DNA of 63,656 nucleotides, filler included, from Rhabdomonas costata (Eukaryota), in assembly GCA_019059605.1 (NCBI GenBank). It is 40 parts of 40 records of this genome, joined end to end, with 100 filler letters (N's around TTAATTAATTAA, not from the genome) between each part and the next. Parts side by side here need not be neighbours in the genome. Positions count along the whole stretch, not along the records: positions 33,483 to 34,976 come from JAHMHO010014553.1; 39 more parts are not named here. The stretch is one strand, 5' to 3'. The position numbers and the translations under genes were made by a program. Below are positions 31,964-35,092 of the stretch, piece by piece. The notes below the pieces were generated by a model that worked only from the letters and a program-made list of their open reading frames with translations, searched no databases and was not told the DNA's origin. Every line of letters starts with the position of its first letter. The stretch's first letter is position 1.

Positions 31964-33323
31964 ACGGCGTTCTTCCACATCACTGACCTCAACACGGTGT
32001 ACTCCGCAGGCACGGACAACGTGGTCAAGTGTGTGACCCTTCCCCTCTTTCTCTTCGAGCCCGTACCACCAACTCAACGGAAAGCGGTCGTTCGTCTGCA
32101 GTGGTAATCGGTTTTACGGCTACATCAGTTCATATCCATTCAGGACTGAAAGGTAAAGGTCTCGCGGTTATAGGTAGGCAATGGAGGGCGGGAGATATTT
32201 CAGAGCACCATGCCGACCCGTGGGTTTTCTTAACCCCCTGACCCGGAACCAGGGACATAACCAAAAACCACACCTCCGCATTTTGTCCGTCAACGTCTGT
32301 TCAGCATCTAGAAAGAAACCACGGCCTTGGAACTTCAGTGAATGGGCACTGTTGGTATGGGTTAAAGCAAATATATGCTTCAGGAAGTGGGGTATGTTTC
32401 TGGTTTCTGGTTATTCCTGTATGATGTTGCATTTGCTCGTGGGTCGGGGATATGTCCGCAGGAAGTGGGATCTGCGCACCCCGGAGCAGCCGGTGAACAC
32501 TACGGAGATCGCGGACCTGACCGGGATGGAGTACAGCCGGGACTGCGACATCTTGATTGTCGCCTCGAAGCTGGCCGTGACCTTCCACAACACCGCCGAG
32601 TATGCTGTCACTTCCTTGCTACAATCTGCCATTGAGCAACAGCAGCCGCTAGGGTAATTGGGTGGGTGAGGGTGGGTTGGAGGGCTCATTCTGTGGCTGT
32701 GGGCGCAGTTTAGTCAGTTGTCGGGCGCCCAGATGCGCCTGAGGCAATGCCACGACACGATGTTGTGTGAATCGTCGGGTGGTTGTTCTTTAAGAACACT
32801 TTCATTCGTGGGTAGAGTGCATTTTGTGAGAAACATGAAAATATTCGGAGAATATTCAGAAACGGGCCAGTGCGTTCGAGTTCGTCGTTCATGACCTCTT
32901 ACTTTTACCTTATAAGCACACTTTGATCGCTCTCGCAAAAAATCGTGGTTGCAATTTTGTTCTAGCCGAATAGCAGCTATCTTCGGGTGTTGCTTGCTTC
33001 AGAGCATTGCACCGGGAAGGTACAATGATGTTAAACTGTGGGGGTCTGTCTGCATTGGGATTAAACAAGTTGCTAATGTGCTCATCCAAACTCTTGTTGA
33101 GTGATCCGTATTTGCTCGTGACAATGTTGAAATGTTGATGGCTTCGTTCCCACGGCTCGCCTCACCCTTCTCTATTTTTGCCCCAACAGTATCTCCATTG
33201 TGAGGCAGTTCCCGGCCACCGAGGAGATCGAGTGCGCCGCGCTGTCCCCCTCTGGCGAGGTTTATGCTGTGGGCAGTAAGCTCAAGGTGAAGGAGTACGA
33301 CCGTGCCTCCGGAACGGAGCTAC
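31964..33323 (+). CDS. STRAP: WD40 protein STRAP/UNRIP fragment (exons 31964-32028, 32462-32599, 33190-33323)
   Basis: SAGTDNVVKKWDLRT...MEYSRDCDILIVA...VTFH...IECAALSPSGEVYAVGSKLKVKEYDRASGTEL is collinear with STRAP (MEY...ILV...IAFH...SASLHP...YDYNSGEEL). Phases agree. Confidence 0.8.
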
Positions 33324-33484
33324 GTATGGCAAAACACTAGCCCGCCACCACCTCCCCATACACCGGTTTCTCCAACCACAACNNNNNNNNNNNNNNNNNN
33401 NNNNNNNNNNNNNNNNNNNNNNNNNNTTAATTAATTAANNNNNNNNNNNNNNNNNNNNNNNNNNNNNNNNNNNNNNNNNNNNAG

Positions 33485-34576
33485 CTAGCGCACCTGTTAC
33501 CGCATAGCACCTACTGCTCCCTTTGGTACAGTCCAGTTGCGAAGGCAATTCTGGGTCAACCTGAAGCAGATGGCCTGAAGCTTGTTTTTGGCGTGCTCAA
33601 AACAGGGGAAGCCGATTCTACTGAAGAGATTTCTGGTTCGGAAGGACGAAAAAAACGGAAGGTAATTCGAACGCCAAACACGGGGCTGAAGTTTACTGCG
33701 GTGAACCGTATTTGCCTTCCTACGCAAAAGTACCTTGATTTGAAACCCACCGTCCTCATAGTGCCCGTTCTTTCCCCTGACGACGTGAAGTCGTGGAAGT
33801 CCGAAAGAGAGTACGATGTGCTTGTAGTTTGCCGAAGCTCGGCCGCCGCCGCCACCGCCAGCGAAGCCTATGCGAATTGTCGCATGATTGGTGCATACCC
33901 CTGCTGCTCGAACTCCGCAGACCTGGTGCTGGCAACGAACACCCTGCAATGGTTCATCAAAGGGCTGGCAGCTTTAATACGGTCGGACGACTTCCGCAAG
34001 CTGCTTTGCTCTGTGAAGAAAACCCTGCTAAGTTCCCAAGAAGGTGCAGATTCTCCCCCAGCTTGCTGCTCCAGCAGTGCTTCAGCTGAGCCTTCTTCCT
34101 CATCGCCCTGTGGCTGCCAACCTTTGGGAGATCTGAGTCTCCACCAGAATGCAGAGCTTATGAAAGGCTACGAGAGCATTTGTGAAGTGCTCGGAAAATT
34201 GAAGTCGAACGTCGTTCATGTGCCAGTGCTAAATGGAAACATTGACTTAAACCAGAAGCGAGTCATCCAGGTGTCCCTGGGGAAAGTGCACCTCCCAGAG
34301 AACACAATCCACCCAGCCCCTGACCCCATGCTGCTGCTGCTCCGGGCTGCGTTGGTCTTCAGCCGGCAGTCCTATGGCATTTCGCTGCTGCCTGCATGTG
34401 GCCCTCCCCCTGAAGACGAGGAGGAAGTCCCTTCCTGGTTGGAGCCTCTGCTAACCCTTCCCACAGCTCCCGTCGAGAAGCAGCAGGCGGACGTGAAGGC
34501 CGTGCCGCCCGAGACTGCCATTAAGGAGTGGCTCAACAACGTCACCTCAAGTGTATCCCCTTCGCTTGATTTGTAA
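33485..34576 (+). CDS. Intronless, 5'-truncated HNH_2-like (Crinkler/RHS-effector-type) endonuclease domain protein, at least 363 aa
   Basis: The frame is open from the contig edge, upstream of the listed ORF start: LAHLLPHSTYCSLWY...TGLKFTAVNRICLPTQKYLDLKPTVLIVPV...HPAPDPMLLLLRAAL. This follows the AHxxP...N...L....FD...IVP...PDPxLL pattern. Confidence 0.65.
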   Translation, partial: LAHLLPHSTYCSLWYSPVAKAILGQPEADGLKLVFGVLKTGEADSTEEISGSEGRKKRKVIRTPNTGLKFTAVNRICLPTQKYLDLKPTVLIVPVLSPDDVKSWKSEREYDVLVVCRSSAAAATASEAYANCRMIGAYPCCSNSADLVLATNTLQWFIKGLAALIRSDDFRKLLCSVKKTLLSSQEGADSPPACCSSSASAEPSSSSPCGCQPLGDLSLHQNAELMKGYESICEVLGKLKSNVVHVPVLNGNIDLNQKRVIQVSLGKVHLPENTIHPAPDPMLLLLRAALVFSRQSYGISLLPACGPPPEDEEEVPSWLEPLLTLPTAPVEKQQADVKAVPPETAIKEWLNNVTSSVSPSLDL

Positions 34577-35092
34577 AAAGCCGTGCCCCCCGGTACAAGA
34601 GAGGTTTCTTCGATTCTGGCACCCGGCACTTGTGATTTCGTTCCGGTTGGGCGCAGGCAGACTGTCTCGTTGCACCTTTTTTTTTCGGGCACAGCTCTCG
34701 TTCCTGTTTTAGCACTTCGAGATTCACCTTATGGATTATTGTTATTGCCAATGGCTGATTTTTGATGCAACGAGGCAGGTAAGAGGGCGTCGGAGGTGGG
34801 GCAGCTCGAAAGCAACCAAAACTGTTTGGCACCGCAAAACACGTCCAAACCTGAAATCCCTGACCAGGCACGGCTCCCTTTCGTGTTCTTTGTCAGCGCT
34901 GCAAACGTGCGCAGACAGGATCTTTGGAGAGGTATGCTTTGCTGGATCTTGCACCGTGTTGCACCGTATTGCTCCANNNNNNNNNNNNNNNNNNNNNNNN
35001 NNNNNNNNNNNNNNNNNNNNTTAATTAATTAANNNNNNNNNNNNNNNNNNNNNNNNNNNNNNNNNNNNNNNNNNNNGTGTTGGGTGTGGTTT

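Follow-up and report, generated by a model that had tools for sequence, protein, structure and literature searches.

Toxin-like domains of the HNH type in free-living eukaryotes are, as a general idea, already known. Among the described systems, the CR-HNH/HNH_2 proteins (PF13391; AeCRN13 and BdCRN13; His-Me finger group 38) come closest to the gene presented here and are likewise eukaryotic. In PMC5289972, an HNH-like motif is what allows CRN13 proteins to bind DNA and to cause damage. The His-Me finger superfamily is defined (PMC5714182) by a catalytic His on the first strand and, within the omega loop, an Asn. A His or Asn in the helix's first turn serves as metal ligand, and a further polar ligand is found either ahead of the catalytic His or at helix position +4 or +8. 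VcaM4I, which is kept in check by an added helix (PMC7897488), and Cap5, whose N-terminal domain is HNH (10.1101/2021.08.31.458341), serve in bacterial defence and carry an EVE or SAVED domain as sensor. KpnI is an active HNH enzyme in which Gln175 serves as the helix metal ligand (PMC3834813). Two further systems are of interest by analogy only: Spok of Podospora, with a variable coiled-coil repeat before the nuclease, copy turnover and pseudogenes (PMC6660238), and AACRNL of fish, which stands for Crinkler-like genes with selfish behaviour in free-living eukaryotes (PMC12957317). Their catalytic folds are different ones, PD-(D/E)XK plus kinase in the former and an ADP-ribosyltransferase in the latter, and no homology is claimed.

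The gene from Rhabdomonas costata shares with CR-HNH/HNH_2 the motif A-H-x-x-P, an Asn, a helix ligand and an Asp in the same order, as well as the trailing strands and a P-D-x-x-L helix, and one relative has a header in common with them. In contrast to HNH_2, its family is characterized by lack of a Pfam match, an omega loop of about 63 residues, a 115-residue helical insertion, a conserved N-terminal G-x-Y-Y...W...R...Y region, a Gln in the helix and no Cys knuckle. Unlike CR-HNH effectors, the Rhabdomonas gene has a putative coiled-coil N-terminus. Most likely, it belongs to a large, strongly diverged HNH_2/CR-HNH-like nuclease family of single-celled eukaryotes. No description of this family was seen in the literature listings searched; members may be listed in Zhang et al. 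2016 or in the PMC5714182 supplementary dataset, both of which lay outside the comparison.

The reading frame and its copies in the genome

The window analysed here is a stretch of 63,656 nt composed of 40 contigs of approximately 1.5 kb each, chained by 39 spacers of 100 nt, from a very fragmented assembly of 97 Mb. Since the window consists of joined contigs, its neighbouring sequences say nothing on the genomic context of the nuclease-like gene. The contig of interest (G000:C14553, 1,494 nt) corresponds to positions 33483-34976 and is preceded by one of the artificial, non-biological spacers (33383..33482). Translation of positions 33485-34576 on the plus strand results in 363 residues followed by a stop codon (P0001). 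The preliminary description had claimed an uninterrupted frame of at least 1.09 kb and had quoted several motifs in it. Both claims hold: the chance of a 363-codon frame at one place, calculated from the composition of the contig, is about 5e-7, and LAHLLPHSTYCSLWY, RKKRK, GLKFTAVNRICLPTQKYLD, VLIVP and HPAPDPMLLLLRAAL are all present in the translation. The additional claim that the frame is open upstream needs a correction: the frame starts at the contig edge, so that it is open only as far as the contig end, and the upstream N-run is the artificial spacer. Based on the open frame and on collinearity with its relatives, the gene appears to be intronless. Stop-free frames of more than 300 codons were found in two of the 40 window contigs. 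The second one is of low complexity and belongs to the contig at 7978-9472, which has long Gln/Pro/Ala-rich minus-strand frames. In the unlinked contig just before that of the nuclease-like gene, short exon-like stretches (32476-33324) by eye read as WD40-like.

The paralogue count proposed in the preliminary description yielded eight matches on seven contigs when P0001 was searched against its own genome, comprising two apparently intact copies and decayed ones. Contigs were chained by overlaps of 127 nt, two of which are exact while two contain one difference. Copy 1 consists of L005, whose 127-nt overlap with the window contig is exact, the window contig itself and L011. Its 5’ 135 codons are located on L005 and its 3’ 363 codons plus stop at 33485..34576 (+); the sum 176+363-41 gives a length of about 498 codons for the uninterrupted gene. 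Copy 2 consists of L004 and L003 and, across gaps, probably of L002, L009 and L010, an assignment made from shared differences.

The start of copy 1 on L005 comprises a Met codon and a 7-residue repeat, while copy 2 starts with a 14-residue repeat on L004. Repeat unit and repeat number differ between the copies; by composition, both N-termini look like coiled coils. A hydrophobic signal stretch is absent from both (best 12-residue hydropathy -0.54 and -0.36). The Crinkler/RHS-effector type suggested in the preliminary description found no support for this gene, since the gene start recovered by 5’ extension is the coiled-coil-like repeat without a ubiquitin-like header, and since RHS/YD repeats are present neither in P0001, P0154 and P0155 nor in the other proteins scanned with Pfam. 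Because it lacks a ubiquitin-like Crinkler header or an RHS header and does not pass the PF13391 cut-off (see below), we did not file the gene as a Crinkler effector.

Between the two copies, identity in the coding region is about 96%. A comparison of 428 codons yielded 20.5 synonymous against 31.5 non-synonymous changes, corresponding to a pN/pS of 0.49 (Fisher p 0.02); all length changes in these codons are in-frame, with no frameshift. Six of the seven residues at positions 269-275, just before the HPAPDPxLL motif, differ. The similarity extends to approximately 120 nt 5’ of the start and 516 nt 3’ of the stop codon and is lost beyond, which defines a common unit of about 2.1 kb with sharp bounds and unrelated flanks. 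In the window, positions 34577..34976 (+) belong to the 3’ non-coding part common to both copies, which ends on L011 and L010, respectively. Of the assembly bubbles downstream of copy 1, one shows no difference in 251 bases besides a 24-nt indel, and the other shows two differences in 221 bases. Since this is far less than the difference between the copies, we consider them more likely paralogues than alleles. Allelism was rejected as the flanks differ and the bubble divergence is far below the approximately 4% between the copies. Further, L006 holds a copy which is old and contains stops as well as a frame change, and L007 is a broken fragment of the gene. The gene is real, of nuclear type and recently duplicated. 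In L070:1-620 (G000:C21820), the 5’ flank and the first 20 codons of copy 2 are joined to the copy-2 3’ flank; this may be a real deletion version of the locus or a chimera of amplification or assembly.

Such a sharply bounded unit with unrelated flanks would be in line with an endonuclease of a mobile element, either of the homing type or as transposon cargo, which drives its own copying. An imperfect palindrome of 36 nt located at the 3’ edge of copy 2 (L010:307-342; 13 bases of it are missing in copy 1 on L011), a 9-nt direct repeat on either side of copy 2 and the unrelated genes next to the relatives would also fit. However, the edges show neither terminal inverted repeats nor poly(A), the 9-nt repeat is missing from the copy 1 flanks and its left context mismatches the apparent empty site, the eight matches in the genome correspond to a low copy number, and the 110 proteins scanned contain no fusion to a transposase, helicase or RT. 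The 9-nt repeat was considered as a target-site duplication and not accepted. The element termini which the preliminary description had proposed to look for were not recovered at the unit edges, with flanks known for a few hundred bases. Given the lack of termini and the low copy number, autonomous mobility is less probable, and we consider the mobile-element explanation very improbable.

In an assembly of 104,289 contigs, it also has to be considered that the contig could be bacterial, viral or prey DNA, the more so as the single relative with an organism name is from a diatom and as one relative is present in a GTDB bin. This relative (L037:217-1620) was the only one confirmed among 65 pattern matches of the prokaryotic scan. 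It is located on a contig of 2,981 nt in a Planctomycetaceae bin, is alone in one of 151 genomes of its phylum, and its 468-aa frame is identical to a frame on the metagenome contig L024. L037 probably represents stray eukaryotic DNA contaminating the bin. Four viral scans, which were pattern-based and insensitive, revealed no relative. The GC content of the gene’s contig (54%) is in line with that of the window, P0001 forms a long branch in the family tree, decayed copies are present on further contigs, and copy 2 continues on its 3’ side into a family of sequences, with GT donors, which recurs at approximately 75% identity on at least four other contigs. With this host-family flank, the decayed copies and the outcome of the viral scans, a stray bacterial or viral contig was not upheld, and contamination in general, which the preliminary description had named as an objection to its own proposal, appears hardly credible.

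In the flank family, we read by eye a first exon resembling a signal peptide, followed by the GT donor. This multigene family was found on L072, L073, L074 and L075, with a Cys/Gly/Ser-rich downstream frame in L073:186-1270, and probably encodes secreted or surface proteins.

Sequence motifs and predicted fold of the HNH-like domain

The translated region on the plus strand can be divided as follows. The predicted first strand with A-H-L-L-P (33488..33502) contains His3, the putative general base; this assignment is based on models and on 115 of 126 relatives. It is followed by an enlarged omega loop of 70 residues (33503..33703; family median 63), in which the models contain helices and which includes RKKRK at 33647-33661. 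Positions 33704..33739 harbour Asn74, the second strand and the core helix with the putative metal ligands Gln81 (33725-33727) and Asp85 (33737-33739). Two further strands, VLIVP and YDVLVVC (33752..33832), are collinear with the post-helix strands of HNH_2 in a by-eye comparison. Next come about 115 helical residues (33857..34201), an insertion peculiar to the family which includes a low-confidence Ser/Cys/Pro-rich loop and for which there was no clear structural match, and finally HPAPDPxLL with a C-terminal helix (34310..34363; residues 281-297 in the model). Directly before His3 there is an Ala and thus no acidic ligand. At the positions that define the superfamily, P0001 has Gln at the first-turn ligand site and Asp85 at +4.

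In the predicted model of P0001 (pLDDT 79, pTM 0.79), residues 2-3 form one strand, residues 75-76 another and residues 81-83 a short helix. A second model was calculated for the 123-residue core of the relative L018, a domain which is 29% identical to P0001 and was picked after the motifs had been seen. In this model (pLDDT 91), strands at 19-21 and 79-81 and a helix at 85-91 were predicted, with the His on strand 1, the Asn right before strand 2, and a helix that begins with Gln and holds the Asp. In both models, pairing of the predicted strands would result in a beta-beta-alpha core.

A structure search with the L018 domain resulted in 15 of 48,161 chains with a Z score of at least 2. Rank 1 was VcaM4I (PDB 6yex; Z 2.8, rmsd 2.8, 66 aligned, residues 201-271), rank 2 Cap5 (PDB 7rwk; Z 2.6, rmsd 3.2, 64 aligned) and rank 3 IscB (Z 2.6, rmsd 2.9, 55 aligned), with a second IscB at rank 9; for this search tool, single Z values are weak, and values under 8 may reflect just a common arrangement. 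The aligned IscB ranges are presumably the HNH domain of this protein. The alignments to VcaM4I, Cap5 and IscB cover nearly the whole L018 model, while most of the others comprise only the loop helices; in four of the 15 cases, HMG-box chains weakly match the helices of the omega loop. If 1% of the library were HNH-bearing, which is an assumed fraction, four HNH chains among 15 would be expected about once in 100,000 cases. T5 SciA (rank 10) was considered as an additional HNH enzyme but left out of this count, since its identity is unconfirmed.

The HNH domains of VcaM4I and Cap5 are thus the best structural matches of the L018 domain model, at an identity of 12-17% and Z scores of 2.6-2.8. 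In VcaM4I, H224, N241, D250 and D254 are all located inside the aligned range (residue numbers from PMC7897488). Like VcaM4I, the Rhabdomonas protein has no ligand before the His and two helix residues four apart, here Gln81 and Asp85. With KpnI it shares the Gln at the place of the helix metal ligand; the likeness concerns this residue alone, and KpnI differs by an Asp ligand before its His.

Other comparisons gave little or no signal. With the whole P0001 model, the best 50 matches listed by VIA-align were free of HNH chains and consisted of helical bundles, with a best Z of 4.2; second-look structure runs on this model added nothing. Foldseek searches of PDB and BFVD stayed without a match at E 0.001, whichever of the two models served as query. 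In respect to the fold check by HHpred or Foldseek proposed in the preliminary description, this means that Foldseek remained empty whereas the domain-only search was led by HNH nucleases. A sequence search of the PDB with the family profile yielded three sequences up to E 10, which we consider TPR-like or coiled-coil noise. Pfam detected nothing in P0001 and no HNH or Crinkler match in 110 family proteins. None of these reached the PF13391 cut-off (0/1 for P0001 and 0/110 for the family), while the control P0157 of the same genome passed with 29.6 bits. Profile-profile comparison to HNH_2 resulted in non-significant probabilities of 0.3 to 4%. When insertions were removed post hoc, the values were 6 to 12%, with the Asn misplaced and one of 40 block-shuffled controls reaching the same level. 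Several of the best local profile alignments are located on the A-H-x-x-P or on the Asn-to-Asp motif. A language model places eukaryotic HNH_2 clusters next to the relative P0003 (score 0.80), which we take as a lead only.

The divergent HNH-like fold postulated in the preliminary description is supported by the motif order, by the predicted beta-beta-alpha core and by the HNH nucleases that lead the structure search with the domain alone. We consider the HNH ancestry of the family highly probable.

Conservation and spread of the family

A phmmer search of 1.84 billion representatives resulted in 206 proteins (50%-identity clusters) at E 0.001 or better; the following counts are based on the 150 of these matches that were listed and on two proteins from a word-based homologue search, which found only two proteins each time. 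The 150 listed relatives are 139 to 649 aa long. The Atlas search with P0001 gave no usable match, and in a metagenome scan 24 of 179 pattern matches were confirmed as relatives. Organism names were looked up for 30 relatives and found for one, which is from the diatom Cylindrotheca fusiformis. Thus, occurrence of the family in diatoms, mentioned in the preliminary description, is backed by one named member, but the claimed expansion in this group is not.

The relatives that share the conserved residues are only 21-35% identical to P0001. His3 is present in 115 of the 126 relatives with a residue at this position, Asn74 in 144/146, Asp85 in 133/150 and the Asp of the PDP motif in 142/144. At the position of Gln81, 115 of 146 relatives contain Gln and 22 contain His. 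The spacing between Gln81 and Asp85 is 4 in P0001 and mostly 5 in the relatives. In a FastTree phylogeny of 137 sequences of at least 300 aa, the helix His is kept in a clade of 15 (support 0.95). P0001 falls into a group of weak support to which the diatom protein also belongs. As the tree is midpoint-rooted and without taxon labels, no claim on horizontal transfer is made. Indeed, as stated in the preliminary description, the second metal-binding His is replaced, namely by Gln in this gene, while one clade retains it. The NLS-like RKKRK is present in P0001 but is not family-wide in that form; a loop with at least four K/R in six residues was found in 46 of 125 relatives.

The Gln in 115 of 146 relatives could also mean that the protein is derived from an HNH enzyme but is catalytically silent and acts in DNA binding or as a scaffold, with the helix Gln conserved for structural reasons. 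The missing acidic residue before the first His, the loss of this His in 11 of 126 relatives and the large added domains are compatible with this. On the other hand, His, Asn and Asp were kept across highly divergent proteins, Gln is a metal ligand in the active KpnI (PMC3834813), and VcaM4I is active with a Ser before the His and two Asp residues in the helix (PMC7897488). Since VcaM4I works without a ligand before the His and KpnI uses Gln175, the Gln substitution need not inactivate the enzyme. We regard a silent protein as unlikely and consider it, with less assurance than for the HNH ancestry, more probable than not that the nuclease activity is retained.

The N-termini of the relatives vary; in 61 of 84, the final stretch has a high content of E, K, R, Q, A and L. 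Seven proteins (P0053, P0062, P0066, P0069, P0098, P0139 and P0150) have in common a short helical header which is not a plain coiled coil and possibly belongs to the helical CR headers. In two of 152 relatives a header was judged by eye, without Pfam support, to be presumably Crinkler-like, in view of the motif of the LxLFLAK...HVLVVVP type. One of the two headers, that of P0017, matches the header of the PF13391 protein P0161 (pairwise E 2e-8). Of 14 hand-chosen neighbouring frames of relatives, six gave Pfam matches (WD40, TPR, DEP with IDO, UTP15_C and two weak ones), and none was common between loci. The frames L013:3058-3918 and L014:1880-2947, located beside two relatives, have no Pfam match at E 0.001 and by eye resemble retroelement proteins in their motifs.

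Proposed mechanism and a possible role in genetic conflict

Our main reading, to which we assign a probability of roughly 60%, is that the gene product is an intracellular DNA nuclease of the His-Me finger (HNH) type, which stems from the HNH_2/CR-HNH lineage and has been strongly remodelled; it would serve in genetic conflict, and the gene would be duplicated as a 2.1-kb unit. In the proposed mechanism, His3 would activate water as general base, Asn74 would brace the loop, and Gln81 and Asp85 would hold one Mg ion in a manner comparable to Asp250/Asp254 of VcaM4I and to Gln175 of KpnI. More tentatively, the basic helical omega loop and the 115-residue insertion could bind DNA or restrain the enzyme, and the coiled-coil repeat could bring chains together. 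The copy turnover, the dispersed positions, the exchangeable N-termini and the kinship to CR-HNH suggest a role in intracellular genetic conflict and not in housekeeping; the nuclease might attack DNA that invades the cell or bring about cell suicide. The gene would spread by occasional duplication of the unit and not as an autonomous transposon.

A more specific possibility is a selfish element made of one gene, similar to Spok, in which a variable coiled-coil repeat and the nuclease are combined with an extra domain that protects the carrier. The same N-terminal layout is found in Spok (PMC6660238), the repeat differs in unit and number between the two copies, amino-acid changes are clustered, decayed copies exist, L070 resembles a version of the copy-2 locus without the gene, and no partner gene was common to the 14 neighbouring frames scanned. 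However, L070 may be a chimera, the Spok nuclease has a different fold, and Pfam detected no kinase or other known resistance domain in P0001 and the 110 family proteins, so that this possibility seems decidedly unlikely to us. It is tempting to speculate further that the whole family comprises widespread one-gene selfish nucleases of protists, with a Gln-type HNH poison, self-restraining insertions, an HMG-box-like loop gripping DNA, duplication and transfer between diatoms and unrelated flagellates, and presence/absence alleles. If true, this would be an HNH counterpart of the fungal Spok drivers outside fungi, but we consider it a long shot.

The remodelled HNH_2/CR-HNH-lineage nuclease that we prefer is of importance for several reasons. 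At least 206 clusters share the domain, for which Pfam has no annotation in any of those scanned, and thus many hypothetical genes of algae and protists gain a testable function with named catalytic residues. Judged from the alignments, the occurrence of Gln and His versions together would widen the range of active sites among eukaryotic HNH proteins. If the family is selfish or defensive, it would provide diatom and flagellate genetics with a first handle on nuclease-based conflict. The same genome also harbours a canonical PF13391 HNH_2 frame at L012:721-1437 (G000:C15936), in which the helix His is changed to Glu. Six relatives of this frame were found, one of them with a Crinkler-like header.
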